This document shows positions 885-26,738 of a stretch of 64,000 nt of DNA, one piece after another. Origin of the DNA: a virus. Lineage: Duplodnaviria; Heunggongvirae; Uroviricota; Caudoviricetes. The notes beneath the pieces are model-generated. The model saw only the letters and a program-made list of their open reading frames with translations. It ran no database searches and was not told the DNA's origin. The translations under genes and the position numbers were made by a program. Numbering within the stretch: the stretch's first letter is position 1; each line of letters opens with the position of its first letter. The stretch lies in the IMG/VR virus record IMGVR_UViG_3300042922_001018; one strand, 5' to 3'.

Positions 885-1356
885 TTTCCTGGTAGCCGTC
901 TCTGCGTGGCCTGCGCTTGGCATCATCCAGAAGGCGCACGGTGCTACGGCAGCGCGGAACCTGCACAAGTTCTTGGTGGACCTCCAGGCTTCGGAGCCTG
1001 AGCGGATGTCGGCGGAGAAGGCAGCTCTTGACGCTGTCTGGGGCGTTCCGAGTTCGCTGCCTCAGATTCGCGAGAACGTCTTCGAGATGTCTCAGCAGAT
1101 AAGCGACATCTCTCGTTGCTGGGACAAGGAGAGCCTCGCTCTTGTGGCGCCGGAGTTGCCTCTGGGCACGCGAATCGTGTGGCTTCGCCTTGCTACTCAG
1201 CTCGATGCTGTGGCCAGCGAAATCCGCGAAGTGATGGCCGATTCTTCCCGTTCTCGTGGTGCTGACGATGTGCTAAACTATAGTGGACCGTCCACGACCG
1301 TGCACGCTTCCGTGGTGGATGGCGCTCACACGGATAACCAGGGGTACTTACTATGA
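868..1356 (+). CDS. hypothetical protein
   Basis: 162 aa; overlaps both neighbours, with an ATGA coupling to pilB. Confidence 0.6.
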   Translation: MTLPTDFLVAVSAWPALGIIQKAHGATAARNLHKFLVDLQASEPERMSAEKAALDAVWGVPSSLPQIRENVFEMSQQISDISRCWDKESLALVAPELPLGTRIVWLRLATQLDAVASEIREVMADSSRSRGADDVLNYSGPSTTVHASVVDGAHTDNQGYLL

Positions 1357-2510
1357 CGGAACAAGCGATTGTCTGGCTCGACAGGCTGGTGGACATGGCC
1401 GTCGAGTATCGCATCTCCGACCTCCATCTCCGCTTCGTCGATGACAACCCTCCGACGCTTACGGTTCGTGCTCGCCGCGACGGACAGCTCGTGCAGTGGG
1501 GTGAACCTCTGGTCGGTCAGGTAGCTCGCGCTGTCACCCTCCGCATCAAGTCTCTCGCGAACGTCGGTTCAGGTCAAATCCGCAAGGCGGAGGAAGGCCG
1601 GTATCCTCACCGACTCGGTTCCGGGAAGATTCCGGAGAACACGTTCGAGAACGTGTATGAGGATGAGGTGAAGAAGCTGCCTCGGATGGAGCTTCGTCTC
1701 GCCGTGCTGCCTACGGGTCGCGGTGAGACGATGATTATGCGTCTCCCGAGCGTTTCAGCAATCCCTGCCCTCAGCGACCTCGGGTTCTCGACCCACAACT
1801 ACAACGTCCTCCAGAAGCTCTTCGGTTTCGCGAACGGGTTGACTCTGTTCGCTGGTCCGATGGGTGCTGGTAAGACGACGAGTATGTACTCGGCTCTGAC
1901 CTATCTCGGTGGCGCCGACAAGGCCGTCTACTCGGTGGAAGACCCCATCGAGCGATTCCTCGACGACGTTGAGCAAATCGAGGTCAACGAAGAGGCGGGT
2001 AACGACTACAAGTCCATCCTTCGTTCTATGCGACGAGCGGACCTTCAGGTCATGCTCCTCGGTGAGATTCGAGACCGCGACACTTCGATGGCGGCTATCC
2101 AGATTTCCATTGCTGGTGCGCGAGTCATCTCCTCCATCCACGCTAACGACTCGGTCGGCGCGATGGAGGCCATGGTGACGCTTTCTGGCGCACCGCCCCT
2201 CCAGGTTCTCCAGTCTCTCCGTGGTGTCGTGTCTCAGCGTCTTGTGAAGACGCTGTGTAAGGCGTGCAACAAGGCCGGATGCCAGGAGTGCATGGGCACC
2301 GGCTACCGCGGCCGTGCGGCCATTCACGAGGTTCTCCACATCACACCTGAGCTGTCCTCGCTGATGGTCCGAGGCGCGCCCCGTCACAAGCTGCTGGAGA
2401 TGGCGAAGGAACAGGGGATGATGGCTCTGGAAGAGGATGCGAAGCGTCTTCTCAGCCAGAACCTCACCGACTGGGACGCTGTCAACGAGGTTCTCGGCGC
2501 GGGCGAGTAA
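1353..2510 (+). CDS. pilB: PilB/GspE-family pilus extension ATPase (short, lacks the N-terminal domain)
   Basis: SDLH motif, Walker A GPMGAGKTT, VEDPIE Asp box, LLGEIRD Walker B, SSIHAND His box, tetra-Cys CKAC...CQECMGTGYRGR. Confidence 0.93.
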   Translation: MTEQAIVWLDRLVDMAVEYRISDLHLRFVDDNPPTLTVRARRDGQLVQWGEPLVGQVARAVTLRIKSLANVGSGQIRKAEEGRYPHRLGSGKIPENTFENVYEDEVKKLPRMELRLAVLPTGRGETMIMRLPSVSAIPALSDLGFSTHNYNVLQKLFGFANGLTLFAGPMGAGKTTSMYSALTYLGGADKAVYSVEDPIERFLDDVEQIEVNEEAGNDYKSILRSMRRADLQVMLLGEIRDRDTSMAAIQISIAGARVISSIHANDSVGAMEAMVTLSGAPPLQVLQSLRGVVSQRLVKTLCKACNKAGCQECMGTGYRGRAAIHEVLHITPELSSLMVRGAPRHKLLEMAKEQGMMALEEDAKRLLSQNLTDWDAVNEVLGAGE

Positions 2511-2586
2511 CCCGCGTACCGCGCTCAGTTCACAGGCCTCTCAGCGGTAGAGTATTACACGACTTCCCTAACAGAAAGACGTGTAA

Positions 2587-4125
2587 ATGTCAACTGATTC
2601 CGTATGGGGCGGTGCTCCGTCCGCCGAGGCGTTCCCGCCCCCGCAGCAGCGAGAGCCGCACCCCGTTCAGGTTCCCACACCTGTTCCCCAGCAGGCCGTC
2701 CAGCCACAGCCGCTCACCAGGGCTGAACAGCGCCAGGCCGCAGCCTCGGTCGCGGCGCCTACCCCGGTTCCGGTGCCCGTCCCGGTCCCTCAGCCAGTCG
2801 CTCCTGACGCCGCGCCGCAGGCAGCTCCCGCAGCTCCTCAGCCCGTAGCTCCCCAGCCTGTCGCCGCCGCTCCTGCTCCGGTGGCAGCCCAGCCGCCGCA
2901 GCAGGTACAGCCGCTTCAGACGGTGAAGGTCGGAGAGGCCGCAGCGCGGTTCACGGAGGCACAGCTCGGTGGTGCGCGCGTGAAGTTCGAGCACATCATC
3001 GGTGTCGCGGCCGGTATGGGTGTCTCGGACATCCACATCGTTGGCGACTCGCCTCTTCGTGTGCAGAAGGCGGGTGCTGTTGTGACCATCGACGGCATCT
3101 ACGTCACGAACCAGGAAATCCTGATGTTCGTCGAGATGTACGGCAAGCAGCGCGGTGGTGCACACGAACTGGAACACGGCCGGAAGGGAACAGTCGAGTG
3201 TATGACGCAGGTCGGCGATGTCCGACTGCGTATGACGTACGTCCGCGAGGTTCACGGATTCGGCTGCACCGCTCGTATCGTGCCGGGTGACCCGCCCAGC
3301 ATCCACAGCGGCGTATTCGAGGACAACCCGATTCCGCAGAAGCTCATCGACATCACGATGGGCACCCGTGGCGGTGGCCTCATCATCGCAGAGGGACCGA
3401 CGGGTTCTGGTAAGACGACGCTCATCGCAGCTCTGCTGCGCGAGGTGAACGACAACCTCGAACGTCACATCTACACCATCGAAGACCCCATCGAGTTCTT
3501 GCACCGCTCGAACCGTTCGCTGGTTACCCAGCGCGAGGTCGGCGAGCACGCGGAGTCCATCCCGAGCGCTCTGCGTACTTCGCTGAGGTACAAGCCGCAC
3601 ATCATTCTCGTCGGTGAGCTTCTGGACCTGGAGACGGTCAAGGGCGCTATCGAAGCGGCGAACAAGGGTCACCTCATCTTCGCGACCTCGCACGCCTCGT
3701 CGGCGGAGGAAGGCGTCTCGGCGCTGGTGAACCAGTTCCCCGGTTCCGAGCAGAAGCAGATTCAGGTGGCCCTCTCGCAGGCGTTGAAGGCGGTCGTGGT
3801 GCAGCGACTCATCCCTCGTGTCGGCGGCGGTCTCGTACCGGCTCGTGAGCTTCTGCTGAACACCATCCCGGTGGCACTGAAGATTCGCGAGGGTAGCTTC
3901 CAGCAGCTCTCCCAGGCTATGAAGCCGACGGACAACATGTTCAAGTTCGAGAACGACCTGGCGCGCCTCATCCACGAGGGTCTGGTGGATGTCGAAGACG
4001 CGAAGCAGTTCGCGAACGACCGCAAGGAGCTGTACTCCAACGTGGACATGTACGTCCGCGAGCACGGCATGGACGCTCGCGTTCGTGAGCTGTTCACGGA
4101 TGACGAGAAGGGCATCGCGCGGTAA
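2587..4125 (+). CDS. pilT: PilT-family retraction ATPase with a Pro/Gln/Ala-rich N-terminal extension
   Basis: SDIHI, GPTGSGKTT, HIYTIEDPIEFLH, QREVGEH, ALRTSLRYKPHIILVGE, ATSH, PVALKIRE (AIRNLIRE-like); no Zn motif. Confidence 0.92.
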   Translation: MSTDSVWGGAPSAEAFPPPQQREPHPVQVPTPVPQQAVQPQPLTRAEQRQAAASVAAPTPVPVPVPVPQPVAPDAAPQAAPAAPQPVAPQPVAAAPAPVAAQPPQQVQPLQTVKVGEAAARFTEAQLGGARVKFEHIIGVAAGMGVSDIHIVGDSPLRVQKAGAVVTIDGIYVTNQEILMFVEMYGKQRGGAHELEHGRKGTVECMTQVGDVRLRMTYVREVHGFGCTARIVPGDPPSIHSGVFEDNPIPQKLIDITMGTRGGGLIIAEGPTGSGKTTLIAALLREVNDNLERHIYTIEDPIEFLHRSNRSLVTQREVGEHAESIPSALRTSLRYKPHIILVGELLDLETVKGAIEAANKGHLIFATSHASSAEEGVSALVNQFPGSEQKQIQVALSQALKAVVVQRLIPRVGGGLVPARELLLNTIPVALKIREGSFQQLSQAMKPTDNMFKFENDLARLIHEGLVDVEDAKQFANDRKELYSNVDMYVREHGMDARVRELFTDDEKGIAR

Positions 4126-4218: not shown

Positions 4219-4686
4219 ATGAACTCTTTCGCCCGTGGCTCAATCTTCGTCGTCAGCTCCATCATCGGTCTTACCGCGCTGGTCGGATGCACGTCTTCGA
4301 CCCCGGCTCCGGTAGCGACCACTGAGACACCGATTTCGAGTGGCATTTATGTGGAGGCTCTGGCGACTGCCTTCCCCTCTGCGACTGAGATTGTCGCGTC
4401 CTCCGGAGGGACCGCCCCAACACCGGAGCTGACAGTTTTCGTCACCGTCCTGCCCGAGACAGAAGTCGGCCCGGAACAGGTACGTAGCGCTGTCGATGCG
4501 GTCTGCGACGTGGATGAGGGAGCGCACCGGCTTCTCTCGCTCTCAGTGGCCCGTGAAGGGTCGGAGAGCGGCATCTTGACGCCAGAGGACTACATCGACA
4601 CAGAAGCTCTCCTGGACGCTGCATTCCCCGAGGAGGGCAAGGTCTCGGCCAGCGGCATTGTCGTGCTGGAAGAGGCTTGCGCCTGA
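4219..4686 (+). CDS. lipoprotein (leaderless)
   Basis: TATGCT-N6-ATG; signal peptide with lipobox LVGC. Confidence 0.75.
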   Translation: MNSFARGSIFVVSSIIGLTALVGCTSSTPAPVATTETPISSGIYVEALATAFPSATEIVASSGGTAPTPELTVFVTVLPETEVGPEQVRSAVDAVCDVDEGAHRLLSLSVAREGSESGILTPEDYIDTEALLDAAFPEEGKVSASGIVVLEEACA

Positions 4687-4752
4687 CCGCGCGTCCAGTT
4701 TCAATGAGTGGCCTCGGTAAACTGAACCGAGCGCCTGAACCGGAGATTTCGC

Positions 4753-5217
4753 ATGCCTTTTGAACCTGACTATGAGTCGAGCTTGTCGTACCGGCCTCCG
4801 GGCGTGAAGGAACGCAACACTGCACGTTTCGTGGGTGCCCTCCTGGTGCTCATCGCTATCGGCATTGTCGTGTGCGGCTTCTTCTTGGAGACACAGTCGG
4901 AGCCGGTCCGGTCGCAGGGGACCGAAGCGGTAGGCACGCTGGAGAGCTTCAAGTACGTCGAGAACGAGGGGTACTACGCGGAGGTGCGGTTCAACGATGC
5001 GGCCGGGAACACCCACGTAGCTACCGCTCGCGAACCGATGTTCACTCAGAGCGCACGCCTTCTGGACCAGCCGTACACAGTCTTCTACAGCGGCGGAGAG
5101 CCTCCGGCGACGTTCATTGAAGGGTTGGACCCGACGATGCCGCTGTGGCCGTTCTTCGCAGGAGGCGGCTTCGTCGGCCTCCTGGGCATCGTGTTCCTGA
5201 TGAAGCCTAAGCGGTAG
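4753..5217 (+). CDS. two-TM membrane protein, DUF3592-like
   Basis: N- and C-terminal hydrophobic helices flanking a GTEAVGT...YYAEVRF...YTVFY beta domain. Confidence 0.65.
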   Translation: MPFEPDYESSLSYRPPGVKERNTARFVGALLVLIAIGIVVCGFFLETQSEPVRSQGTEAVGTLESFKYVENEGYYAEVRFNDAAGNTHVATAREPMFTQSARLLDQPYTVFYSGGEPPATFIEGLDPTMPLWPFFAGGGFVGLLGIVFLMKPKR

Positions 5218-5264
5218 TCGAAACTTCGTTCACTCTGCGAGCACCCCTCTATTACCATGAGGGT

Positions 5265-5855
5265 ATGAAGATTCGCAAGTTTGTACCTTTGACCGGTCTT
5301 GTTCTGGCCGCGTCGTTGGGTCTTGCGGGTTGCGCTCCGTCTGAGGCTCCCGCCCCGGACACGACTGCTACAGCCCCGGTTGTTCAGACTCCGGAGGTCG
5401 GAGGAACCGTAGACGCGGCGCAGGCGGAGGGCTTGAACGGTGGCGCCGTCCCCGGTCTTCGTGCCTACGCGATGCAGGACGGTACGTTCCTCGTCGTCTC
5501 GGAGACTGAACCACTCCCCGAAGCGGTACTCGCCGACATGGAGGCGCGCGTTGCTGCTGTACCTCTTGCAACGGACACCGCGTCATCGGCGGAAGTGGAT
5601 GCCCAGCTCAGCGGGTTCGTATTCGATGCTCGGGAGCAGACTGGGAAAGACATCGTCGTCCTGACGTACTCGTGGTACCCGATTGGGGTGGACGTGGATG
5701 CTCCGACGCAGGAGCGCTGGGTCCACATGGGGGATGTCGAGGGCGTCACTGACCCCATGGGGGACATCACGATTCGTACTCGCGAAGAGTACAGGGCGAT
5801 GCTGGACGCGGCTCAGGCTAACGACCCGAACATCGTCATCATCGAACACGGGTGA
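5265..5855 (+). CDS. lipoprotein, paralog family A (1 of 3)
   Basis: Lipobox LAGC; shared motif RAYAMQDGTFLVV...PLP...TGK. Confidence 0.8.
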   Translation: MKIRKFVPLTGLVLAASLGLAGCAPSEAPAPDTTATAPVVQTPEVGGTVDAAQAEGLNGGAVPGLRAYAMQDGTFLVVSETEPLPEAVLADMEARVAAVPLATDTASSAEVDAQLSGFVFDAREQTGKDIVVLTYSWYPIGVDVDAPTQERWVHMGDVEGVTDPMGDITIRTREEYRAMLDAAQANDPNIVIIEHG

Positions 5856-6445
5856 GCGCCGTGCGTCGGCCCGCGTTCTTTGTCGTGCCTGCGATGGCCC
5901 TAGCGCTCGTCCTAACGGCCTGTGGCTCCACGGAGACGCCCGAGCCAGTTTCGTCGCCCACAGAGGCCGTCAGCGGCTCCCAGGAGCCTTCTGTCGGTGA
6001 TGTGGTCGTGCCAGAGCCGGGAGCGACACAAGTCCCCTCCTGGTCTCAGGAACCTCGGCCATACCCGATGCGCGATGGGACGTTCGTTCTGGTCGCTCCC
6101 GGTGTCCCGCTTCCTGAGTCTGCCCGGCTGGACATGGAAGCTCGCGTCGCGGCCGTAACGCCTGCGACGCTGGAGGATAGCCCGGAAGTGGTGGACGCTG
6201 TCTTCTCGAACTTCTCTCGTCTTGCACAGACGCTACGTAGCGAGACCGGCCGGGCGGTGGTCATCATCGCGCACACCGTCTTGCCTTCGACAGGGCGTGA
6301 CCGATGGGTCCATTTCGGTGGGACGGCTCGTGAGAACATCCCTGCTCCGGAGTCTCTGACGGGTACTGAAGTTACCGTGGAAGAGTACCAGGAGAAGGTC
6401 TTCGAGCGCTCGAATGAGGACTATTTCGACGTGTTCATTCGATGA
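5852..6445 (+). CDS. lipoprotein, paralog family A (2 of 3)
   Basis: Lipobox LTAC; RPYPMRDGTFVLV...PLP...TGR. Confidence 0.8.
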   Translation: MSAVRRPAFFVVPAMALALVLTACGSTETPEPVSSPTEAVSGSQEPSVGDVVVPEPGATQVPSWSQEPRPYPMRDGTFVLVAPGVPLPESARLDMEARVAAVTPATLEDSPEVVDAVFSNFSRLAQTLRSETGRAVVIIAHTVLPSTGRDRWVHFGGTARENIPAPESLTGTEVTVEEYQEKVFERSNEDYFDVFIR

Positions 6446-6504
6446 GTGCGAACCGTACCATACTCGCGCTCACTGCGCAACTACCCCGCCGCTAACATAG
6501 GGGT

Positions 6505-7140
6505 ATGTCTAAGAAGAATCGCTTGGGTGGCCTGCTTGCGGTGCCCCTCGTTACCATCCTCCTGATTACGGGGTGCTCCGTCGGTTCGCCTGAACCTACC
6601 GAGACGCCGAACCCGTCTCCGAGCATTTCCGCGCCCGCCGACCCCACGGCCGCGCCCGAGCCGACGGAGCCACCAGCGCCCGCCCCGGAGGAGACTGCGG
6701 GTGCTGTCGTTGACGCTGCGACGGCCAGTGAGCTGAACTCGGAGAAGAACGGACAGTTCCGCGGCTACCCGATGCCGGATGGCTCCTACGTCGTCGTTGA
6801 CAAGACCGCTCCGCTCCCGGCCCCCGTCCAGCAGGACATCCACAACAAGGGGACGAACCACGCGAACACCTACACGGTGGACGACGGCACAAACGCCTTC
6901 CTTCAGGAACGTCAGAAGATGATTAACGAAGTCCAGACGAACACGGGAAAGCGTGCGGTTGCGCTTCTCCGTATGACCGGCTACGACTTCAACGAGAACC
7001 TCGTGACGAAGTATTTCTTCAACGGCCCGTATCAGCCTGACACGGCCTTCGGCTCAGCCGCTGAGGCTCAGGCTGCCGCCGAGGCGTGGATTGCTTCCCA
7101 GGAGAACCCGAACAACTACGTTCTCATCCTTCCGGAGTAA
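6505..7140 (+). CDS. lipoprotein, paralog family A (3 of 3)
   Basis: Lipobox ITGC; RGYPMPDGSYVVV...PLP...TGK. Confidence 0.8.
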   Translation: MSKKNRLGGLLAVPLVTILLITGCSVGSPEPTETPNPSPSISAPADPTAAPEPTEPPAPAPEETAGAVVDAATASELNSEKNGQFRGYPMPDGSYVVVDKTAPLPAPVQQDIHNKGTNHANTYTVDDGTNAFLQERQKMINEVQTNTGKRAVALLRMTGYDFNENLVTKYFFNGPYQPDTAFGSAAEAQAAAEAWIASQENPNNYVLILPE

Positions 7141-7280: not shown

Positions 7281-7284
7281 GTGC

Positions 7285-10200
7285 TTAGAAGCAGCCCATG
7301 TTCACTCGGTCGATACCGGTCGGCACGCTCGTAGCGCCAGTGGTGAACCAGCCGCTAGAACCCCAGCCGTTAGTAGCCTGGGACTGAGCCTGCTTGCTAG
7401 AGGCGCCGTCGAAGCAACCAATCTGAGTGGCCCATCCGGTCCAGGTACCACCGTTACGGGGTACCGTTCCCTGGATACGAACGCTGTTGTTGTATCCGTT
7501 CGCGTTCGCACCACCCGAGCCGTTGAAGCGGAGGGTGTTGACGACGTACCCACCGTAGTCGGTACCACCGAGAGCGGCCATGTACGAGCCGTCGTAGGAG
7601 CCGCCGGTCGGGGTGCCGGGGTAGGGAGGAACCTCCCAGTTGGCGCCGACTCGAACCGAACGGTCCTGCCATCCGGTGCCGACACCAGCGCCGCGAGTAC
7701 CGTTGTCGTTGGCTGCGCAGTAGACGGAAGCGCCGAAGCTACGGGTGACCCAACCGCTGTAGTAGGTTCCAGCGCTGCTGGAGCTGCGGCTTGCCGAAGC
7801 GCTCTGCGAGGTCGGGCTGGCCCAGTCCACCTGAGTGTTGGTGCCCGCCGGGCATCCGCCACCGGCCGAAGCGCTCCACGAGCCGCTCGTCGAGACGGTG
7901 GTACCCGTGTAGACGGTGCCGCGCCAGGTGTCCACGTTCGACCCAGAGACGTTCAGGTAGACGCCACCCGGTGCGGGCGGGATTTCAGCCTGGACGCCGC
8001 CGGTCTGGCGGAACTCGACACCGGAGTTGGCGAAGACGCCGACGCAGATGTAGTTGGCCGAGCTGCCGTACCAGTTCGCCCACGTTGCCGTGATGTTGCC
8101 GGTGCGGAAGCCGTTGCCGCTGTTCGGGTTGAACCAGCCCTGCCAGACACCCGTGTTGCCACCAGCGCCGTCGTTACGCCACTGGTACTGGATGCCTACG
8201 GTGCTGGCCGAGCAGTTCGCCTCGATGCCGACAGAACGCTGCGTGCCGTTCGGCACACCGCTCCAGAACGGCTGCTCCAGGTACATGCCAGTCGGGTTCT
8301 CGACGTTGCGGACCGTTTCGCGGTGCTCTACGGCGCTAGCCGGACCCTTGTTGTTCAGGCTGTCCTGAGTGTAGGGGTCGATGCAGCGGTGCTGAACGTC
8401 CACGTCGAGACGGTGTCCCTGAGCGACGTTGTACAGTACGGCCAGGTGGCGGTTGTCACCCAAGTTGCGCGGCGACGTGCCAGCGAGAACCGGGAGGGTG
8501 GTGTTCTGGCGCGTGTTGTTGATGTAACGCTCACGACCAGCCGTGTCACCCCAGGTGCTCCAGCCGCTCCAGGCGTTACCGGCACCCGTGGTGTTGATGC
8601 GGTAGCGGAAGCGGGACTCGCCCCACTGTCCGGCGCCGGAGCAGTTCTCGTAGGTGAAGACGTTGTCGAGGGTGGTCGAGTTGCCGCTTCCGCCCTGGTC
8701 AACACGGATGCGCTCAGCGGTGGCCGTGTTGTTGACGACCGGGTAGTTGACTCGGATGAGTCCCTGGCCCGGACCGGGAACGGTCGAGAGCGCTTCGAGC
8801 GGGTTGGTGATGGAGGCGTCGCGGTCAGGTCCGTCACAGACGGCGTAGCCGACGTAGCTCGCGTCGTAGAAGTTCGCGCGAGCCTTCGGAGCGGTGTGGC
8901 TGACCGACAGGTTGTTCCAGCGGGTCGGCTCCGAGCGCTTGTCCGTCTCGAAGGTGGACCAACCGCTGTTGAACCAGGCGCGACCAGCGTTCTGGAGGGC
9001 GTTGTTGGTACCGGTCATCGCGTAACGGATGGTCGTACCTGCGGGGCAGGACGAGTTGCCACCGATGGTGACGTTGTACTCAATGTCCATCGGAGTGGTG
9101 GACGGAGCGGCCAGGGTGATGTTACCGCTGGGGAGCGGCAGGTTGGTCGTCCACGTGGTGCTACGGGTCGGGGAAGGGTCCGAGGCCAGGTACGGGGAGA
9201 TGCAGCGTGCTACGGCCTCCCAGACGTAGTAGCGGCCCCATGCGGTGTCCACGTTGTAGAACGGTCCACCGACCGGCGAGGCAGCCCACGTCGTCCATGC
9301 ACCGGTCGGCGCAGGCGTGGTCTGACGGTAGCGGTACTCCGCCGTGGTGCCAGCCGGGCAGACAGCCGCGTCGTGGATGATGCGGTTGTTGATAGGCTCA
9401 GCGGTGCCCTGGTCGTTGGTCGTGAGGTTGGTCAGACCCGGCGGGGCCGGGATGGGACGAATCCACGTCTCGGTGTTGGTCGGGGACTCCGGACCCTGAG
9501 CGTAAGGGGAGACACAGCGTGCCTTCACTTCGATTTCGATGCGTCCACCGCGAAGGATGGCGATGAGGGCGCTCGTGTCACCGCTCCACGAAGTGAATGA
9601 GGTGTACGAAGTCGCCTCGTTCAGGCGGTAGCGGTAGCTGTACTCGGGAGTCGTGCCAGCGGGGCAACCCGTGGTGACGAAGTTCGCGGGTACCGGGTCA
9701 GCGTCGGCCGAAGGGTCGGTGAACGTGACGGTCGGCGTCGCCGGTACCGTCACGATGGGGCGAATCCACTGTGCCGTGTTGCGCGCGGCCTGAGTCGGCG
9801 AGAACTGAGTCGCGTTGTATGCACAACGGACCTGAGCGTTGACCTGGATGCGGGCACCCTCGGCGACGTTCGTCGTCATCACACGCGTGGTGCCCCAGGT
9901 GGTCCATGCGCTCCATGCGGAAGTACCGAAGCGGTAGCGCTGCTGGTACTGGCCGCTGGTGCCAGCGGGGCATGTGATAGCGGAGACAGTCGTCTGGTAG
10001 GAAGCCGTCGTCGGGTTAGTGCCCGTGATGGTCGGCGCCGCAATCGGGGGCCATGGTGTCTGGATGGTGACGATGTTCGACGGGTTGGACTCCACCGGAG
10101 GGAGCACGGCGATGGCACGGTAACGGTGGTTCTGACCGTAGGTCGAACCAGTGTCGAAGGTGAGCTGTGCGGTTACGCCGTCCTTCGGGTTCGGCGAGAT

Positions 10201-11460
10201 TGCCGGGGAAGGCGTCCAGGCACCGTTGTTGATGCTCTGCTCGACGCGGTAACGGACTGCCTGAAGCGACGAGACCGGACCCCAGGAGAGGTTGTGCTCG
10301 TGCGGACGGGCCGAGTTCTCGGAACCGGCGAGGACCGGAGCAGGAAGCGTCTGCGTGTAGTTCACCGTGTCGGTGGACGTGGCGTTCGATACGCTCGGCG
10401 GGCAGGCGGCGACAACCGCGACCTGGCCGACGGAACCGTTCGGTACGCCTTCAATCTGGACAGGCTCGAATGCGCCGTAAGAGGTGAAGGTGACTTCGTG
10501 GTTCTCAGCGCCCGTGGTCGAGGTGACCCAACGGACGGTGTACTCCGTCGTGAACGGCCCACAGGTCACGTAGTCCCAGGTAATCTGGATACCTTCACGC
10601 ATGGAGCCATAGATGTCACCGTTGGTGGCGGAGCGCTCGACCCGGAGGTTGTTGATGGGTCCAGGGTTGTAGAGAGTCTGCTCCGGCTGCTCTTCGGGGT
10701 TGGTGAGCGTGTCACCTTCGGCCGTCGGAGTAATCCAAGTCTTGCCAGCGATGTCGGTCGGACGGGGACCGGTGAGCGGCATGGCAACCTGGGTCTCCGA
10801 GCCGTTGGCGCGAGAAATCTTCACCAGCGAAGGCTGGCTCCATTCCCACTCGTAGTCACGCCAGTAAGAGTCGCGAGTGGCGGTGGACTTCTGAGCCGCG
10901 GGGACAGTCGTGGACAGGCCCACTTCGAGACCGGAAGCGTTGTAGTGGAGGTCACGACCGGCAGAGTTCGATGCGACGAACACTGCGTCGGTCGCGAAGC
11001 CGTCCACCGAGATGGTCTTAGTGGTCGCGGCGGGGGTACCTGGCGATGTGCCGAGGTCACAGACTTCGTTGTTGAAGTACGAGACCGTGTTGCTCAGCAC
11101 TCCACCGTCGAGGGTCCAGACGCTCTTACGGCAGTCGTCACGGAATGAACCGCTGCCGCGCTGCTGGTAGACACCAGGGGACCGACCGGGTAGCTCATAG
11201 AAGATAGCCGTCTTGTCGCCTCGAAGGAAGACCTGAGACGAGTTGTTGGCGTCGAGCGACCACGCCTTGCTAGCCGTGGTGAGGTTCGCTGCGCGAGTCT
11301 GCTCGTCGGCGTACTTACCTACGAAGTTGAAGGTCGTGATGAGCACGGCGAAGATGGTCGCGCCCACAATCATGCTGCCGAACACAGCGATGATACTCAG
11401 GACGGGGTCAGTGGCCCCTCGCTCTGAGCGCAGGTGTGTGAGCAGTCTGTTCATCATCAT
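7285..11460 (-). CDS. giant pilin-anchored adhesin (~1390 aa) with ~9 Cys-paired Fn3-like repeats
   Basis: Prepilin-like leader LRSERG|ATDPVLSIIAVFG plus hydrophobic helix; repeats CPAGTxxEYRYR...WxxW...ARCxS. Confidence 0.8.
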   Translation of the reverse strand: MMMNRLLTHLRSERGATDPVLSIIAVFGSMIVGATIFAVLITTFNFVGKYADEQTRAANLTTASKAWSLDANNSSQVFLRGDKTAIFYELPGRSPGVYQQRGSGSFRDDCRKSVWTLDGGVLSNTVSYFNNEVCDLGTSPGTPAATTKTISVDGFATDAVFVASNSAGRDLHYNASGLEVGLSTTVPAAQKSTATRDSYWRDYEWEWSQPSLVKISRANGSETQVAMPLTGPRPTDIAGKTWITPTAEGDTLTNPEEQPEQTLYNPGPINNLRVERSATNGDIYGSMREGIQITWDYVTCGPFTTEYTVRWVTSTTGAENHEVTFTSYGAFEPVQIEGVPNGSVGQVAVVAACPPSVSNATSTDTVNYTQTLPAPVLAGSENSARPHEHNLSWGPVSSLQAVRYRVEQSINNGAWTPSPAISPNPKDGVTAQLTFDTGSTYGQNHRYRAIAVLPPVESNPSNIVTIQTPWPPIAAPTITGTNPTTASYQTTVSAITCPAGTSGQYQQRYRFGTSAWSAWTTWGTTRVMTTNVAEGARIQVNAQVRCAYNATQFSPTQAARNTAQWIRPIVTVPATPTVTFTDPSADADPVPANFVTTGCPAGTTPEYSYRYRLNEATSYTSFTSWSGDTSALIAILRGGRIEIEVKARCVSPYAQGPESPTNTETWIRPIPAPPGLTNLTTNDQGTAEPINNRIIHDAAVCPAGTTAEYRYRQTTPAPTGAWTTWAASPVGGPFYNVDTAWGRYYVWEAVARCISPYLASDPSPTRSTTWTTNLPLPSGNITLAAPSTTPMDIEYNVTIGGNSSCPAGTTIRYAMTGTNNALQNAGRAWFNSGWSTFETDKRSEPTRWNNLSVSHTAPKARANFYDASYVGYAVCDGPDRDASITNPLEALSTVPGPGQGLIRVNYPVVNNTATAERIRVDQGGSGNSTTLDNVFTYENCSGAGQWGESRFRYRINTTGAGNAWSGWSTWGDTAGRERYINNTRQNTTLPVLAGTSPRNLGDNRHLAVLYNVAQGHRLDVDVQHRCIDPYTQDSLNNKGPASAVEHRETVRNVENPTGMYLEQPFWSGVPNGTQRSVGIEANCSASTVGIQYQWRNDGAGGNTGVWQGWFNPNSGNGFRTGNITATWANWYGSSANYICVGVFANSGVEFRQTGGVQAEIPPAPGGVYLNVSGSNVDTWRGTVYTGTTVSTSGSWSASAGGGCPAGTNTQVDWASPTSQSASASRSSSSAGTYYSGWVTRSFGASVYCAANDNGTRGAGVGTGWQDRSVRVGANWEVPPYPGTPTGGSYDGSYMAALGGTDYGGYVVNTLRFNGSGGANANGYNNSVRIQGTVPRNGGTWTGWATQIGCFDGASSKQAQSQATNGWGSSGWFTTGATSVPTGIDRVNMGCF

Positions 11461-11495
11461 GATTGTATCACCCTGTAGGTAGGAACGCTGACGGA

Positions 11496-17172: not shown

Positions 17173-17699
17173 GAGCGGATGTCCGCAATGTCGGTCATCA
17201 CGGCGTTCCAGGTGATACCTGATGGCATCAGTACGCCAGCGGCTTCGTTCGTAGCGGGCGTAGTCGCTGGAATAGCGACGATGTTGGACGACACTGACGT
17301 ACGCAGAAACACAGTTCCCGAGGCGGAGAGCGTTACTGCCACCCAGCCGGAACTGGAGACACGAGCGCGCGAGGTACTCCCAGCGGTCGGCGTGAATCCA
17401 ATGGACGAGTTCTGAAGCTGGGTGTTCTGACCCGATGCATTCGGCCCAACCGCAAGGACCGCGTAACGGTCGTTCTCGGCGAGGTACGCAGCTTGCGCAG
17501 TCGCCATGCGGTCAAGGTCACCCTTGGCGTTCAAGTCGTTTGCATTGCCGATGAAACCGGAGATGGCGAAGGAACCGCCCACGAGCAGGATGAGCGTGAT
17601 AGCGATACCCGCGATGATGAGGATGGGGTCGGTTGCACCGCGCTCTTCACACAGGCGCGCGATTTCGGCCTTGCGAGCCTTCAGCTTGTCAAGCATCAT
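17169..17699 (-). CDS. type IV pilin-like protein (copy 6)
   Basis: Same conserved leader and helix; divergent C-terminus. Confidence 0.88.
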   Translation of the reverse strand: MMLDKLKARKAEIARLCEERGATDPILIIAGIAITLILLVGGSFAISGFIGNANDLNAKGDLDRMATAQAAYLAENDRYAVLAVGPNASGQNTQLQNSSIGFTPTAGSTSRARVSSSGWVAVTLSASGTVFLRTSVSSNIVAIPATTPATNEAAGVLMPSGITWNAVMTDIADIRS

Positions 17700-18202
17700 G
17701 ACCTCACGTTGTTGATGTCGGAGAGAAGCTGGGTAGCCGTAAGACCATCAGGAAGTACGACGTTTCCTCTGTCGGCCGATTCGTAAATCTGGCTCTGCGC
17801 AGAGCTACGGATGAATACCTTGCCAGAAGCAGAGTGTGTCACCGCCACCCAGCCGCTAGCGGTGAATCGGACGATGAACGTGTTCCCGGAAGTTGGCCGG
17901 AAGCCGATGGAAGAGTTCTCCAGGGCCAGGACGGGTGTGTTGATGTTCGGCCCAGAGACGTAGGTGGCGTAGGTGTCGTTCTCGGCGAGGTACGCAGCCT
18001 GGGCGGTCGCGACACGGTCGAGGTCACCCTTCGCGTTCAGGTCATTCGCGTTCGCAATGAAACCGCTGATAGCAAAGGAACCACCGACGAGGAGGATAAG
18101 GGTGATGGCGATACCCGCGATGATGAGGATGGGGTCAGTGGCGCCGCGCTCCTCACGCAGGCGCGCGATTTCGGCCTTCTTGGCCTTCAGTGCGTCAAGC
18201 AT
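17696..18202 (-). CDS. type IV pilin-like protein (copy 5)
   Basis: Same conserved leader and helix; divergent C-terminus. Confidence 0.88.
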   Translation of the reverse strand: MLDALKAKKAEIARLREERGATDPILIIAGIAITLILLVGGSFAISGFIANANDLNAKGDLDRVATAQAAYLAENDTYATYVSGPNINTPVLALENSSIGFRPTSGNTFIVRFTASGWVAVTHSASGKVFIRSSAQSQIYESADRGNVVLPDGLTATQLLSDINNVRS

Positions 18203-18235
18203 GTTGAGAGAATCTTTCAGGTTGGGGGGAGAGAA

Positions 18236-18274
18236 CCGAAGCCCTGGTCTAAGGGTATCAGACCAGGGCTTCGG
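18236..18274 (-). terminator. hairpin after pilin copy 4
   Basis: ccgaagccctggtct / agaccagggcttcgg. Confidence 0.7.
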
Positions 18275-18298
18275 GACCGCGCGTTAGCGCGGAGCGGT

Positions 18299-18826
18299 TC
18301 AGAGCGCGTTGATGGCGGTGAGAACTGCGGTGGCGAACGTGGTGTTCGCCGCGGCGTTGCCAGCGTTCGGCAGCACCAGCGTGCCCGGAAGGGCCGCGAT
18401 GTTGTTGCCCTGCGAGCCGACCTCGATGATGGCCGTGCCGGACGAGGTGCGCGCGTAGCGGGTGCCCGACGCGGACTCGGTGACAGCGACCCATCCGCCG
18501 GAAGCGGTCGGGGTGGTCAGGATGGTGAGCGAGTTGCCCGCGGTCGGCGTGAAGCCGATGGACGAGCTGCCCAGCGTCGCAACGTTGTTCGAGTAGGAGT
18601 CGCGCTCGGCGAGGAACGCGGCCTGAGCGGTCGCGACGCGGTCGAGGTCACCCTTGGCGTTCAGGTTGTTCGCGTTCGCGATGAAGCCGGAGATGGCGAA
18701 GGAGCCACCAACGAGCAGGATGAGGGTAATCGCGATACCCGCGATGATGAGGATGGGGTCAGTTGCTCCCCGCTCCTCGCGGAGGCGTGCGATTTCGGCC
18801 TTCTTGGCCTTCAGCTTGTCAAGCAT
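18299..18826 (-). CDS. type IV pilin-like protein (copy 4)
   Basis: Start MLDKLKAKK at 18826 with AAGGA RBS; conserved N-terminus. Confidence 0.9.
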   Translation of the reverse strand: MLDKLKAKKAEIARLREERGATDPILIIAGIAITLILLVGGSFAISGFIANANNLNAKGDLDRVATAQAAFLAERDSYSNNVATLGSSSIGFTPTAGNSLTILTTPTASGGWVAVTESASGTRYARTSSGTAIIEVGSQGNNIAALPGTLVLPNAGNAAANTTFATAVLTAINAL

Positions 18827-18872
18827 GCGTGGATGGTTCCTTTGGGTTGGTGGAGAGGAAGTCTCTCCATAA

Positions 18873-18896
18873 AGTAAATGGGCAGGCAGGTTCCAC
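18873..18896 (-). promoter_or_regulatory. conserved pilin upstream motif (variant copy)
   Basis: GTGGAAC-N3-CCTG-N2-CATTTACT. Confidence 0.7.
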
Positions 18897-18936
18897 AAAG
18901 AGAGGTTTCTTGTGTCCCCTCTTCGGGGGACAACGA

Positions 18937-18970
18937 CGAATCCCCCGCCCAGCGAAGGGCGGGGGATTCG
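18937..18970 (-). terminator. hairpin after pilin copy 3
   Basis: cgaatcccccgccc-agcgaa-gggcgggggattcg. Confidence 0.75.
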
Positions 18971-19004
18971 GTTTCCGCTAGAGTGTCGGTCCGTTGTCCG
19001 TGGG

Positions 19005-19520
19005 TTACGGGATGGCGACAACCGCGTCGCGGACCTGCGTCGCGGTGATGCCGGTCGGGAGCGTCAGCGTGCCACCGACGTAGGCGACGGTCGCGGTGGC
19101 ACCGGTACCGGTCACGTTGGCGTCGAGGACGGTCGTGGAAGCGGAGGTACGGACGTACTTCTGTCCGGAGGCCGACTTCGTGACGGCGACCCAGCCGGTG
19201 CTGCCGCTGGCGAGGATGGTGATGGGGTTGCCCGCGGTCGGCGTGAAGCCGATGGACGAGCTGCCCAGCGTGGTGACGCTGTTCGAGTAGGTGTCACGCT
19301 CGGCGAGGAACGCGGCCTGGGCGGTCGCGATGCGGTCGAGGTCACCCTTCGCGTTCAGGTTGTTCGCGTTCGCGATGAAGCCGCTGATGGCGAACGAGCC
19401 ACCCACGAGCAGGATGAGGGTGATGGCGATACCCGCGATGATGAGGATGGGGTCCGTTGCACCGCGCTCTTCGCGGAGGCGTGCGATTTCGGCCTTCTTG
19501 GCCTTCAGCTTGTCAAGCAT
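19005..19520 (-). CDS. type IV pilin-like protein (copy 3)
   Basis: Start MLDKLKAKK at 19520; conserved N-terminus. Confidence 0.9.
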   Translation of the reverse strand: MLDKLKAKKAEIARLREERGATDPILIIAGIAITLILLVGGSFAISGFIANANNLNAKGDLDRIATAQAAFLAERDTYSNSVTTLGSSSIGFTPTAGNPITILASGSTGWVAVTKSASGQKYVRTSASTTVLDANVTGTGATATVAYVGGTLTLPTGITATQVRDAVVAIP

Positions 19521-19566
19521 GGATGGTTCCTTAGGTTGGTCGGGTGGAGAGCTTGTCCCTCCACCT

Positions 19567-19590
19567 AGTAAATGTACAGGTGTGTTCCAC
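19567..19590 (-). promoter_or_regulatory. conserved pilin upstream motif
   Basis: GTGGAACACACCTGTACATTTACT. Confidence 0.75.
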
Positions 19591-19638
19591 AAAAAGTGAG
19601 CGCGCTTGTCCCCTCTTTGGGGGACAAGCCTTAGACAC

Positions 19639-19675
19639 AACGAATCCCCGACCCAGCGAAGGGTCGGGGATTCGT
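19639..19675 (-). terminator. hairpin after pilin copy 2
   Basis: aacgaatccccgaccc-agcgaa-gggtcggggattcgtt. Confidence 0.75.
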
Positions 19676-19713
19676 TGAACCGATGGTGGTCGGTGTGGCC
19701 TTGGCCGTGAGGC

Positions 19714-20208
19714 TTACAGCGCGCCGAACGCGGTGGCCACGTTCGCTGCGTTGATGCCGGTCGGCAGGGTGCCGGGCACGGACTCGGTGATGGTCGTCGA
19801 GGCCGAGGTACGGACGTACTTCGTACCCGAAGCCGACTTGGTCATGGCGACCCAGCCGCTCGGCGACGCGAAGAGGCGGATGGGGTTGCCCGCGGTCGGC
19901 GTGAAGCCGATGGACGAACCGCTCAGGGCGGTCAGCGCGGTGGCCTGGGTGTAGGTGCCGACACCTTCACCCGCGTAGGAGTCACGCTCGGCGAGGAACG
20001 CGGCCTGGGCGGTCGCGATGCGGTCGAGGTCACCCTTCGCGTTCAGGTTGTTCGCGTTCGCGATGAAGCCGCTGATGGCGAAGGAGCCACCGACGAGCAG
20101 GATGAGCGTGATGGCGATACCCGCGATGATGAGGATGGGGTCGGTTGCACCGCGCTCTTCGCGGAGGCGTGCGATTTCGGCCTTCTTGGCCTTCAGCTTG
20201 TCAAGCAT
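19714..20208 (-). CDS. type IV pilin-like protein (copy 2)
   Basis: Start MLDKLKAKK at 20208; conserved N-terminus. Confidence 0.9.
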   Translation of the reverse strand: MLDKLKAKKAEIARLREERGATDPILIIAGIAITLILLVGGSFAISGFIANANNLNAKGDLDRIATAQAAFLAERDSYAGEGVGTYTQATALTALSGSSIGFTPTAGNPIRLFASPSGWVAMTKSASGTKYVRTSASTTITESVPGTLPTGINAANVATAFGAL

Positions 20209-20256
20209 GTGTGTGGTTCCTTTGTAGGTTGGTGTGGAGAGCTTGTCCCTCCACCT

Positions 20257-20280
20257 AGTAAATGTACAGGTGTGTTCCAC
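20257..20280 (-). promoter_or_regulatory. conserved pilin upstream motif
   Basis: GTGGAACACACCTGTACATTTACT, identical to the 19567 copy. Confidence 0.75.
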
Positions 20281-20318
20281 AAAATGTGAACGAGGTGTAA
20301 CAAGACGATTGCATAATG

Positions 20319-20362
20319 CACAAGGAAGGCTCCCCAGCCGAAGCCAGGGAGCCTTCCTTGTG
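20319..20362 (-). terminator. hairpin after pilin copy 1
   Basis: cacaaggaaggctccc / gggagccttccttgtg. Confidence 0.75.
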
Positions 20363-20377
20363 GTGCGACGCTGCTAC

Positions 20378-20935
20378 TTAGCCAGCGGTGCGGATGTCAG
20401 TGACGATGGCCTGGACTGCGGCCAGGTCGATGCCCGTCGGGTACGTCAGAGCCGGGGAGATGGTGGTTCCCGATGCTCCAGCCGAGGCGATGGTGGTGCC
20501 GGTGGAGCTGCGTACGAAGACTTCGCCCGAGTTCGAGCGAGTCACAGCGACCCAACCCGAGTTGTTGGTGCCCACGACGACCTTGGTGCTGTTGCCAGCG
20601 GTCGGCGTGAAGCCGATGGAAGAAGTCTGGAGCTGGGTGTTGGCCTGGACGCCCGCGGTGGCGGAGTCTGCGTCCACGTTCGGTCCTACGACGAGGACTC
20701 CGTAGCCGTCCTTCTCGGCGAGGAATGCGGCCTGGGCAGTCGCGATGCGGTCGAGGTCACCCTTCGCGTTGAGGTTGTTCGCGTTCGCGATGAAGCCGGA
20801 GATGGCGAAGGAGCCACCAACGAGCAGGATGAGGGTAATGGCGATACCCGCGATGATGAGGATGGGGTCCGTTGCACCCCGCTCATCACGCAGACGCGCG
20901 ATTTCGGCCTTCTTGGCCTTCAGCTTGTCAAGCAT
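20378..20935 (-). CDS. type IV pilin-like protein (copy 1)
   Basis: MLDKLKAKKAEIARLRDERG|ATDPILIIAG... Confidence 0.9.
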   Translation of the reverse strand: MLDKLKAKKAEIARLRDERGATDPILIIAGIAITLILLVGGSFAISGFIANANNLNAKGDLDRIATAQAAFLAEKDGYGVLVVGPNVDADSATAGVQANTQLQTSSIGFTPTAGNSTKVVVGTNNSGWVAVTRSNSGEVFVRSSTGTTIASAGASGTTISPALTYPTGIDLAAVQAIVTDIRTAG

Positions 20936-21055: not shown

Positions 21056-21850
21056 TTAGAAGATGACGCCCAGTTCCTCGGGTGTGGGTGCGTACATCTG
21101 GCCGAAGTACGGGATGGCGATGACGGCAATGACGGTCGCCAACGCCAGGAAGATGCCGAAGGGGACGCCTGTGTCTCCACCCGCGTTCTTGCGGATGCTC
21201 TTGAACAGCGCGCGCAGCAAGGTCCAGACGGTGCTGGTAAGGAAGGCGAGGAAGAGCCACGCGACGACGGCCAGTGCGCCCACGAGCCAGACAGCTCCCA
21301 TGTCACTCGGATTGTCCGGCGAGATGATGGGCGTACCGTACGCAATGCCGAGGGAACCCACCCAGAACGCCAGCGATGGCGCCAGCTTCACATCCCCCAT
21401 GCCCATCTGCTTCGCGAACAGGAACGAGAGGACGAGGAACACTACGCCGACGGCAAGTGCAATGGCCGCGCCGACGAGGAGGGAGATGACCCAGTGTTCC
21501 GTCTCGTACATGAGAGAGAAGGGGAGCACGACGAGCGAGAAGACGGCCGTGTAGCCCGTCAAGACGTTCGGCAGCGTGCGGTAGTAGTAGTCGGTCGCGG
21601 CGAATAGCGCCAGCAGTCCGAAGAGACCTGCGATAGCCGGAATGAGCGTGTACGCCCCGGTCAGGAACGCGGCCAGAGCTGCGGCGAGACCTGCTACTGT
21701 GCCCATGAGGGGCAGGTTGATGACGTGCTCCGGGTCACGAGGCTTGACGGCGTAGCGTCCAGCGAACACCGTGTGGAGCCAGGCAAACACGGCAGCAGCC
21801 ACAACGGCGGCAAGGAGTATCCAGTCGAACTCAGCAGTCATGACCATCAT
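21056..21850 (-). CDS. pilD: prepilin peptidase (A24 family), apparently without the Zn/methylase domain
   Basis: Multi-TM; first Asp in ATDYYYRTLPN; GMGDVKL; VPFGIFL; no CxxC pairs. Confidence 0.88.
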   Translation of the reverse strand: MMVMTAEFDWILLAAVVAAAVFAWLHTVFAGRYAVKPRDPEHVINLPLMGTVAGLAAALAAFLTGAYTLIPAIAGLFGLLALFAATDYYYRTLPNVLTGYTAVFSLVVLPFSLMYETEHWVISLLVGAAIALAVGVVFLVLSFLFAKQMGMGDVKLAPSLAFWVGSLGIAYGTPIISPDNPSDMGAVWLVGALAVVAWLFLAFLTSTVWTLLRALFKSIRKNAGGDTGVPFGIFLALATVIAVIAIPYFGQMYAPTPEELGVIF

Positions 21851-25270: not shown

Positions 25271-25300
25271 GCTAACAGTCTAGCATGCCCACCTCAGTCG
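25255..25300 (-). promoter_or_regulatory. 20-bp hairpin covering the -10 box and ATG of the nuclease gene; also the likely pilC terminator
   Basis: cgactgaggtgggcatgcta-acagtc-tagcatgcccacctcagtcg. Confidence 0.7.
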
Positions 25301-25313
25301 GTCCGAACCTACA

Positions 25314-26738
25314 TCATACTTCCGTCAAACCAAGGAACATATCGTAAATTGGCAGGTACGTGGACACGATGACCAGGACCATGATGAGACCCACGGCGCC
25401 GTTCGCGATAGGCTGGAGAGCCGTGGTGAGGTTCTCCGTGCGCTTGTGCGCTTCACGTCGGTAGAAGTCGGTGAGGTTCGCGAGCGCCTTGATTTCAGAA
25501 CCGGAGTCGAAACCGTTGCGCATGATGAAGCCAGCGGACGGCGGGATGAGGTAGCCGTCGGCGACGCCTGCGAAGTCGGAAGTACCGTTGTCCATGCGGC
25601 GGATGTGCGCGAGAAGGTGGTACTTGTACGCGGCGTTCGAGGAGGCTTCCGCAGCCGTCTTCAGTGCCTCGCGGTCGGACATACCGACTTCGAGGAGACC
25701 TGACAGGATGGAGAACACCTGGACGAGACGCTGCGACTGGAGCACCTTACCGAGGATGGGCACCTTCACGCTCATCCGGCCCAGCTTCATGCGAAGCCGC
25801 TCGTTGTAACGTCCCCAGAACTTGTAGTAGATGAACCACGAGATGCCCGAGACGATGGCGATAGCACCGACCCAGATGAGGCCCGTTCCGAGGTCCATGA
25901 CGAACTGAGACAGCGGCGGAAGCGGCTTGCCGAGGGACTCGAACATGTCCGCGAACACCGGCAGAACGAACAGGATGACCGCGTAGAGGAACAGGATGAT
26001 GACCGTGAAGAGGATGATGGGCTGCATGGTCGCGGACTTGATTTTCTGCTTCAAGTCCTGGCCTTCCAGCATGATTTCCGCGCCCTTCTTCAGGTTCACG
26101 GCCTCCGCACCGGACTGGGCACCAACGTGCAGAAGGTCCGCCACGATGCGAGGGAAAATCTTCTCCTCCTCGCGCATAGCGGCGGAGAACGACTTCTGAC
26201 CAGACGCGACAAGCTGGTACATGCGGGCGTAGGCGTTGCCCAGCTCGGTCTTCTTGTACTGCTCTGCCAGCGTCGCGAGCGGCCGTGTCTCACCACGGGC
26301 CGTTTCGAGCATTAGAGCGAGGATGCGGAGGGACTCCGCTACCTCAACCGGCTTGACGTTCTTGTCGAACTCCAGCCATTGCGGGCGGCGGGAAACCTTC
26401 TCCTTGACGGGACGCGCAGCCTTCTCGATGAGTTCGCGGAGAATCTTGTCCTGCTGCGCCTTCTGCGAGGCTTCGCGAGCTTCCAGCTTCTCGCGGTTCT
26501 TCTCCGAGGTCTTGCGCTGCTTCTCCAGACCGGCGCGTTCGCGAGCGAGCTGAGCCTCGGTCTGGACCTTCGGCTGCTTGGCAGCTTCGGTGTCGCGCTT
26601 GCCCTGTTCCTTCTGGTTTCGGGCGCGCTCCTTCTCCATCCGAGCCTGCTCTTTTGCGAACTCCTTGTCGCGCTTCGCCTGCTCCTTAGGGGACAGGTCG
26701 GAAACGACTCCGGGCGGGGTGTCCGGGTTAAGCGTCAT
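25314..26738 (-). CDS. pilC: PilC/GspF-family pilus platform protein
   Basis: Two T2SSF repeats; IKSATMQP-TM-VLPVFADMF..LP.LS; KVPILG; C-terminal LQP...TYLPIY. Confidence 0.9.
   Translation of the reverse strand: MTLNPDTPPGVVSDLSPKEQAKRDKEFAKEQARMEKERARNQKEQGKRDTEAAKQPKVQTEAQLARERAGLEKQRKTSEKNREKLEAREASQKAQQDKILRELIEKAARPVKEKVSRRPQWLEFDKNVKPVEVAESLRILALMLETARGETRPLATLAEQYKKTELGNAYARMYQLVASGQKSFSAAMREEEKIFPRIVADLLHVGAQSGAEAVNLKKGAEIMLEGQDLKQKIKSATMQPIILFTVIILFLYAVILFVLPVFADMFESLGKPLPPLSQFVMDLGTGLIWVGAIAIVSGISWFIYYKFWGRYNERLRMKLGRMSVKVPILGKVLQSQRLVQVFSILSGLLEVGMSDREALKTAAEASSNAAYKYHLLAHIRRMDNGTSDFAGVADGYLIPPSAGFIMRNGFDSGSEIKALANLTDFYRREAHKRTENLTTALQPIANGAVGLIMVLVIVSTYLPIYDMFLGLTEV

Follow-up and report, generated by a model that had tools for sequence, protein, structure and literature searches.

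What kind of element carries a type IV pilus locus beside genes that are common in large phages, and whom does the pilus serve? The question is raised by 64,000 nucleotides of the IMG/VR virus record IMGVR_UViG_3300042922_001018, a stretch that we call the window and that comes from a 450,372-bp JGI metagenome contig (Ga0456364_0000048), of which about 73 kb were read. A sequence-only reading of this DNA had listed pilB, pilT, pilC, a prepilin peptidase and ten prepilin-leader proteins together with rIIA/rIIB, DUF5664, a GGQ release-factor domain, tmRNA and more than 30 tRNAs, and profile matches and coordinates bear out every one of these. The window is best explained as a segment of a ~0.5-Mb megaplasmid belonging to the pS16, pD40 and pCPAA3 family, with a Micrococcales actinobacterium as its host, and we regard the megaplasmid assignment as very probable. 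The sequence-only reading overlooked that the pilus is atypical, having no glutamate at position +5 of its pilins (Glu5), no methylase domain in its peptidase and, in the relatives, no PilM. The genes for the pilus are arranged as follows.

1353..2510, plus strand: PilB-type extension ATPase, 385 aa, no N1 domain (T2SSE 4e-61)
2587..4125, plus strand: PilT-type retraction ATPase (TIGR01420 1.5e-77, 261 bits, cut-off 319)
7285-20935, minus strand: ten open reading frames (ORFs) with prepilin leaders, seven small and three large, comprising the next four entries
7285..11460, minus strand: core minor pilin m3, 1391 aa, a pilin domain and about nine Cys-paired repeats of ~97 aa with predicted FN3 fold
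11496..14795, minus strand: core minor pilin m2, 1099 aa, PilX/K-like, leader ERG↓ALSNALIL (the arrow marks the predicted cut here and below), a pilin domain and eight Cys-paired repeats with predicted FN3 fold
14792..16546, minus strand: core minor pilin m1, 584 aa, leader DRG↓DASPV
16627..20935, minus strand: seven major-type pilins in tandem, each of 164-185 aa, nearly identical in leader and helix (ERG↓ATDPILIIAGIAIT) and variable in the head
21056..21850, minus strand: A24 prepilin peptidase (Peptidase_A24 over cut-off, residues 76-209), no Cys/zinc methylase domain
25314..26738, minus strand: PilC platform protein, charged N-terminal tail, two T2SSF domains

Together these genes hold the core set of a type IV filament, with T2SSE, two T2SSF and Peptidase_A24 matches over cut-off and intact catalytic motifs. 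The best NCBIfam models for PilB are GspE/PilB, with scores far under their cut-offs and alignments that start only from about position 185, and the protein keeps the Walker A motif GPMGAGKTT, the Asp box, the Walker B motif GEIRD and a CxxC..CxxC zinc motif. PilT has a Pro/Gln-rich N-terminal tail, the motif GPTGSGKTT and a C-terminal ALKIRE motif, and its Walker B reads GELLD throughout the clade, Leu replacing Arg after Walker B. In the PilB/PilT tree it lies on the PilT side (SH-aLRT 100), and TIGR01420 is its best family, although below the cut-off. The PilC clade consists of 29 clusters with 49-100% identity, and the next matches reach at most 29%. No PilM_2 profile match was found in the three complete relatives (pS16, pD40 and pCPAA3), while two other actinobacterial megaplasmids gave positive controls; in the window there was no PilM match among the ORFs flanking pilB and pilT, in a search that did not extend to PilN and PilO and with 84% of the contig unseen. 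The ORF upstream of pilB (120-884) has Atlas leads to unnamed actinobacterial clusters and not to PilM/N.

The peptidase carries both catalytic Asp residues (TDYYYRTLPN, GMGDVKL), and the predicted cleavage motif of its substrates, R-G/A↓A-T-D-P, is archaeal-like. Counted from this inferred site, an acid at +5 is present in none of the ten window pilins. For the 113 clusters of the pilin family, 96 read x[GAS]↓xxDP (in which the D3-P4 pair is fixed by the search pattern itself), and among these 96 Arg stands at -2 in 78 and an acid at +5 in none. Glu5 has been described as "often, but not always" present and as missing from capping subunits (PMC10191384). What is unusual here, as read from the predicted cut, is that the major-type subunits have lost it; Asp3 may take its place. 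Because there is no acid at +5, Pfam misses pilins of this type, which are annotated on pS16, pD40 and pCPAA3 only as hypothetical proteins, and rule-based pilin finders would likely miss the system too. Some distant relatives of these pilins (P0322, P0329, P0335 and P0340) start directly with M-A-N-P-F, without any leader, and may need no prepilin peptidase.

Despite the archaeal-like cleavage motif, the predicted head fold is that of a bacterial pilin. An AF2 model of one small pilin (pLDDT 89.8) shows a long helix and a beta meander, and the top 14 structural matches in a VIA search are all type IV pilins, the best being T. thermophilus PilA4 (Z 9.3, rmsd 3.1, 122 aligned), with residue 1 aligned at the predicted cut. 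Foldseek with the same model returned nothing at E <0.001, yet pilins head its list. With G/A at -1, a hydrophobic helix and this predicted fold, the proteins combine a class III signal with the lollipop shape of pilins. Revised likely starts for the seven small pilins are 17145, 17696, 18202, 18826, 19520, 20208 and 20935, and for the largest pilin, m3, 11460. For four of the seven small pilins there is a separate 79-nt element upstream, and hairpins occur between the pilin genes; promoter and terminator scans gave nothing above chance. The possibility that the seven are silent cassettes in the style of Neisseria pilS was ruled out by the full leaders on all of them and the upstream element on four.

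The three large pilins m1-m3 form a core set whose order is kept in pS16, pD40 and three metagenomic loci. The N-terminal domain of m3 is orthologous to m3 of pS16, pD40 and the loci L011, L161 and L162; m2 has an Atlas lead to N_methyl clusters of only 0.80-0.81. The m1 orthologues in L011 and L161 carry a CBM_4_9 match, and the window copy has no Pfam match. A model of the Cys-paired repeat (pLDDT 92.9) matches an FN3 domain (Z 12.2, rmsd 2.2, 93 aligned). Scattered over the relatives are 22 pilin-like genes on pS16 and 14 on pD40, many of them far from the motor genes and many with large C-terminal domains.

Chromosomal PilT-type pili are common in actinobacteria, with the PilT profile above cut-off in 231 of 301 sampled Actinomycetota genomes (a tally that includes four unpublished genomes, G402, G449, G489 and G521, whose sequences entered the analysis only here), and the window might on this ground be a piece of ordinary chromosome whose pilus locus was inherited vertically, or else a chimeric assembly. 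We find either hardly credible. The chromosomal type IVa locus of C. pusillum AA3, between rpoC and the rpsL/rpsG operon (~2,182,000-2,190,000), has canonical G↓FTLIE pilins, and its ATPases are only 30-33% identical to the plasmid-type ones. In the trees that we built, which are quick IQ-TREE runs and contain long branches, PilT and PilB of the window cluster with the plasmid copies (SH-aLRT 99) and apart from the chromosomal ones; a grouping of the clade with the chromosomal PilT of Curtobacterium is rejected by the approximately unbiased (AU) test (p 8.5e-6). In a set of 401 Microbacteriaceae genomes, the pilin profile falls below 1e-20 on pCPAA3 only, and the weaker matches inspected are mostly canonical chromosomal pilins; likewise, among GTDB species genomes the PilC clade was found on pCPAA3 only.

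A chimera was to be considered between about 26 and 33 kb, where the pilus genes give way to rIIB and rIIA. The gene order of the window between ~21-22 and 37 kb, from the peptidase/pilC region through rIIB and rIIA, recurs co-linearly in two independent assemblies of sister elements, L014 (GCA_011800935.1) and L015 (SRR25400369), where nucleotide identity over this junction is 67-87%. Because the junction is repeated in unrelated assemblies of sister elements, it is not a chimera. The GC content of the window is flat at 60-65%, and two Logan assemblies match the contig identically over its pilB end.

Which replicons, then, carry this locus? Among plasmid records the small pilin has matches in only three, and these are circular Curtobacterium plasmids of 546-608 kb: pS16 (NZ_CP126255.1), pD40 (NZ_CP126274.1) and pCPAA3 (CP018784.1). 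They resemble the window in having orthologous PilB, PilT, PilC and peptidase, pilins with the ATDP motif, the three core minor pilins in order and a similar size. Identities to pS16 and pD40 are 59-60% for PilB, 54-55% for PilC, 40-50% for the pilins and 44-45% for UvrD, and PilT is 52-54% identical to that of the three plasmids; a 1000-aa protein and a sigma-like gene are also common to the window, pS16 and pD40, as are arrays of tRNAs with a tmRNA (37 tRNAs on pS16, 34 on pD40). The window thus shares the backbone genes, the pil clade and the tRNA and tmRNA array of this giant-plasmid family. It differs from the Curtobacterium plasmids in GC content (62% against 67%), in the position of the pilin block, which splits pilB-pilT from pilC, in its much longer tip pilins and in its rIIA, which was not found in pS16; the Curtobacterium relatives also carry a second pil system. 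This second PilB/PilT/PilC/A24 system of pS16 and pD40 (L004:33707-40552 and L009:32748-38622) is likewise without PilM, and its pilins are of another Glu5-less type (DG↓IELSIPNII or IEVSIPNII).

The pil locus of pS16 and pD40 adjoins RepA and ParA, and in six loci of the clade a gene for an FtsK/SpoIIIE translocase stands head-to-head with pilC. pS16 carries a coupling protein (TrwB_AAD_bind 2.7e-46) and a VirB4-like AAA_10 ATPase, and among its 727 annotated features, with ~80% of the genes unnamed, are DnaE, NrdEF, ThyA, ligases including an RNA ligase, SmpB, ArdC, ssb and wall hydrolases. The earlier statement that PilB/PilT pili are normally chromosomal or on conjugative elements agrees with this, a megaplasmid of conjugative type being the expected setting. 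The family of the VirB4-like protein (P0108-P0227) is found on 285-608-kb replicons or contigs of Agromyces, Pseudarthrobacter, Citricoccus, Nocardioides and Rathayibacter, with frequent inteins, which points to a wider set of giant conjugative plasmids in actinobacteria, classed by MOB-suite as non-mobilizable.

The genes that suggested a phage lie further along the window than the pilus locus.

31905..36645, minus strand: context block of the RF-1/GGQ gene, a YAcAr/SLOG-like gene, rIIB and rIIA
31905-32327, minus strand: RF-1/GGQ domain gene (phrog_3122 1e-28; GGQ seen)
33334-34194, minus strand: rIIB (phrog_609 3e-51)
34225-36645, minus strand: rIIA (phrog_612 6e-64)
38635-39372: PF18909 gene (Pfam match), which we take to be the former DUF5664
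49966..63943, minus strand: tRNA array and tmRNA, with 36 tRNA calls, two with unread anticodon

Of these genes, rIIA/rIIB, the RF-1 domain, PF18909, the tRNAs and the tmRNA are common in large phages and would fit a jumbo phage or phage-plasmid that provides its host with a pilus, as would the DnaE, NrdEF, ThyA and RNA ligase of pS16 and its many unnamed genes, and a terminase-like protein has been reported in pCPAA3 (Evseev 2022; PMC8929003). We consider such a phage very improbable. The whole annotation of pS16 holds no capsid, portal, terminase or tail name, and four virion profiles (Terminase_6N, TerL_ATPase, SPP1 portal and HK97 capsid) found nothing in the relatives, a soft negative, since the terminase profile also missed the true actinophage CN1A. 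The only match of the CN1A terminase is its LAGLIDADG region, inside the long FtsK gene of pS16, and the terminase report for pCPAA3 is best explained by this shared intein region, which was traced in pS16 and pD40. The small pilin has no match in phage records, nor do PilB and PilC in viral contigs, and the relatives, which have RepA, ParA and a coupling protein, are stable circular replicons. The tRNA and tmRNA array is common to the Curtobacterium megaplasmids, tRNAs are known to be commoner on large plasmids (PMC8628078), and rIIA is present on 14 plasmids, four of which are 800-kb Variovorax megaplasmids (H35-H38). The presence of tRNA arrays, tmRNA and rIIA/B is thus not diagnostic of a phage. 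The sequence-only reading was right in seeing a mobile giant element with its own PilB and PilT in an actinobacterial host, but its phage-like frame is not supported. Variovorax plasmids also occur among the PilT matches, which makes these megaplasmids a possible second case of rIIA together with a pilus.

From the genes present we infer the following mechanism. The A24 peptidase would cut the prepilins after R-G/A without methylating them, the three core minor pilins would prime the fibre and cap its tip, two of them bearing long arms of predicted FN3 fold, and PilB with PilC would build the fibre from one or more of the seven major pilins. PilT would then retract it, so that a caught recipient cell could be pulled close and the plasmid passed on by its own conjugation apparatus, and variation in the pilin heads and tip arms could tune the range of partners or evade pilus-binding phages. 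By analogy with the thin pili of IncI plasmids, the likeliest role is the capture of mating partners, a proposition to which we give about even odds. It is favoured because the pil locus belongs to the backbone, by rep/par and with FtsK head-to-head with pilC in the six loci, and because a coupling protein and a VirB4-like ATPase co-occur in pS16; moreover, the three relatives keep the system even though, in at least one case, the host chromosome encodes a PilB/PilT pilus of its own, which argues for a role that serves the plasmid. There is a precedent in the IncI2 plasmid TP114, where the pilus with its tip adhesins holds mating pairs together and determines the recipient range (PMC9045228).

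Several observations weigh against mate capture. In the sub-lineage to which the window belongs, FtsK does not adjoin pilC. The conjugation genes are those of the relative pS16, with ~73 of 450 kb of the window's contig read, and homologue searches with the T4CP-like and VirB4-like proteins of pS16 gave no match on the 450,372-bp contig among the candidates listed, nor did a metagenome scan, an uninformative negative because the candidates are capped and inteins shift lengths. No relaxase was found in the relatives (PLSDB lists them as 'non-mobilizable'), the Replic_Relax search being empty along with its control. PilMNO is essential for type IVa assembly (PMC6916266), and therefore a machine without it might not build long fibres. 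Finally, a full flagellar operon on pS16 means that these plasmids supply surface traits to the host that are unrelated to mating; this cluster (334,755-363,980) is complete, with export gate, motor, hook, flagellin and sigma factor.

The same operon is one reason to think that the pilus of this megaplasmid serves the host instead, in attachment to plant or litter surfaces, in biofilms or in twitching. The FN3-fold arrays and CBM_4_9-like modules of the tip pilins suit this role, as do the scattered pilin-like genes of pS16 and pD40 with their large C-terminal domains, and modular pilins mediate adhesion in S. sanguinis (PMC6916266). We think this rather unlikely as the main role, since the chromosome of C. 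pusillum AA3 already carries a type IVa locus and the pil core is kept beside rep/par and FtsK family-wide, while the flagellar operon was seen in pS16 only. Mate capture and host adhesion are not exclusive and may coexist. Less probable again, and in our view improbable, is a short pseudopilus that only pushes cargo or DNA through the wall in a secretion- or competence-like manner, perhaps with the neighbouring FtsK. The short PilB without N1 and the absence of PilM resemble the minimal Com system (PMC10191384), and the FtsK adjacency and the loss of Glu5 point the same way; however, PilT is retained, whereas it is lost in Com pili and type II secretion systems (PMC10191384), the pS16 annotation has no ComEC or ComEA name, and megadalton-scale FN3 arms on the tip pilins and seven variable major pilins suit a surface-exposed fibre. 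Mate capture by such a fibre, if true, would extend pilus-assisted conjugation from Gram-negative IncI plasmids to actinobacterial megaplasmids.

Other genes of the window stand beside or within the pilus locus.

4219..7140, plus strand: four lipoprotein-like ORFs and one ORF with two transmembrane segments, 3' of pilT, no family match
22923-23558, minus strand: secreted protein with C-terminal LPPTG and a transmembrane segment, a sortase-type wall anchor, within the pil region
23612-25270, minus strand: DUF4379 zinc-finger repeat protein between pilC and the peptidase
47612-49993, minus strand: a second cluster of Pro/Thr-rich lipoprotein-like ORFs, like the one at 4219-7140, no family match

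The ORFs of 4219..7140 were not found in pS16 or pD40, and entry-exclusion or surface proteins are possibilities for both lipoprotein-like clusters. The DUF4379 gene is present in L014 and L016 and not in L015, has 21 matches in pS16 and is probably a mobile endonuclease-like gene. Long ORFs on the opposite strand of the pilin genes (7237-9600, 10126-11148 and 11463-15092) were ruled out as shadows by their codon GC pattern.

How does this pilus compare with known systems? It shares with the monoderm type IVa pili (Streptococcus sanguinis, Clostridium and Actinomycetota chromosomes) PilB and PilT, a single PilC, an A24 peptidase and the bacterial pilin fold, as well as several major pilins, modular minor pilins and the absence of a secretin. 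It departs from them in several characters of type IVa: the window PilB has no N1 domain, the peptidase is not a bifunctional PilD with a zinc/methylase domain, and the pilins are without Phe1, Glu5 and Pro22. It is, moreover, plasmid-borne, falls in a separate long-branch clade and has no PilM in the three complete relatives. An acid at +5 has been described as absolutely conserved in bacterial pili and is absent from these subunits, and a natural PilT-powered system seemingly without such parts is a test of their purpose, open to study now on the plasmids of cultured, non-model Curtobacterium strains.

The Com pili of Firmicutes share the minimal complex of ATPase and platform, the ATPase without N1 and the absence of PilMNO, but they have no PilT and their pilins have Glu5; the ComGA and ComGB models stay well under cut-off for the window (154 bits against 300 and 80 bits against 240). 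Neither does the window fit Tad/Flp pili, its mature pilins being 144-165 aa long with a globular head, its PilC single and the TadA model weak. With archaeal pilins and PibD it has in common a charged -2 residue, G/A at -1, the lack of an acid at +5, a methylase-free peptidase and several pilins with one common hydrophobic helix (PMC4371748). Since the head fold and motors of the window are bacterial, this likeness is most likely convergent.

Pili on megaplasmids are already known from Pseudomonas, where the 400-kb-class pBT2436-like plasmids have a type IV pilus locus in their backbone (PMC8628078), and have been annotated on Arthrobacter and Frondihabitans plasmids. The loci of Arthrobacter pACHL01 and Frondihabitans pNBRC108728a are plasmid-borne like that of the window but encode PilM, at identities of 34-36%. 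pACHL01 has two adjacent pil systems (143,738-168,790), one with PilM and a long PilB; the other combines a short PilB with a Glu5-less G↓AFDLP pilin and clusters with the window clade, although the joining of the two plasmid systems with pACHL01 in the tree may be an artefact. An open-access literature search found no paper describing the pilus of the window, and the paper on pCPAA3 makes no mention of a pilus (PMC8929003), so what is new is an apparently undescribed variant pilus on a family of giant actinobacterial plasmids. We would propose only tentatively, and with more doubt than confidence, that it is a distinct subtype confined to Micrococcales giant plasmids, combining PilB, PilT and PilC without PilMNO, unmethylated Glu5-less pilins, an archaeal-style cut and retractile mate capture in a single-membrane host.

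The conjugative type IVb thin pili (R64, IncI2 TP114 and PAPI-1) are the systems from which the mating role is drawn by analogy. Like the pilus discussed here, they belong to mobile elements, they go with a coupling protein and a VirB4-like ATPase as the pil locus does in pS16, and variable tip adhesins are the likely specificity device in both. They differ in being diderm systems with a secretin and long leaders with Glu5, and to our knowledge they have no PilT. Their diversity arises from a shufflon, and that of the window from gene duplication.

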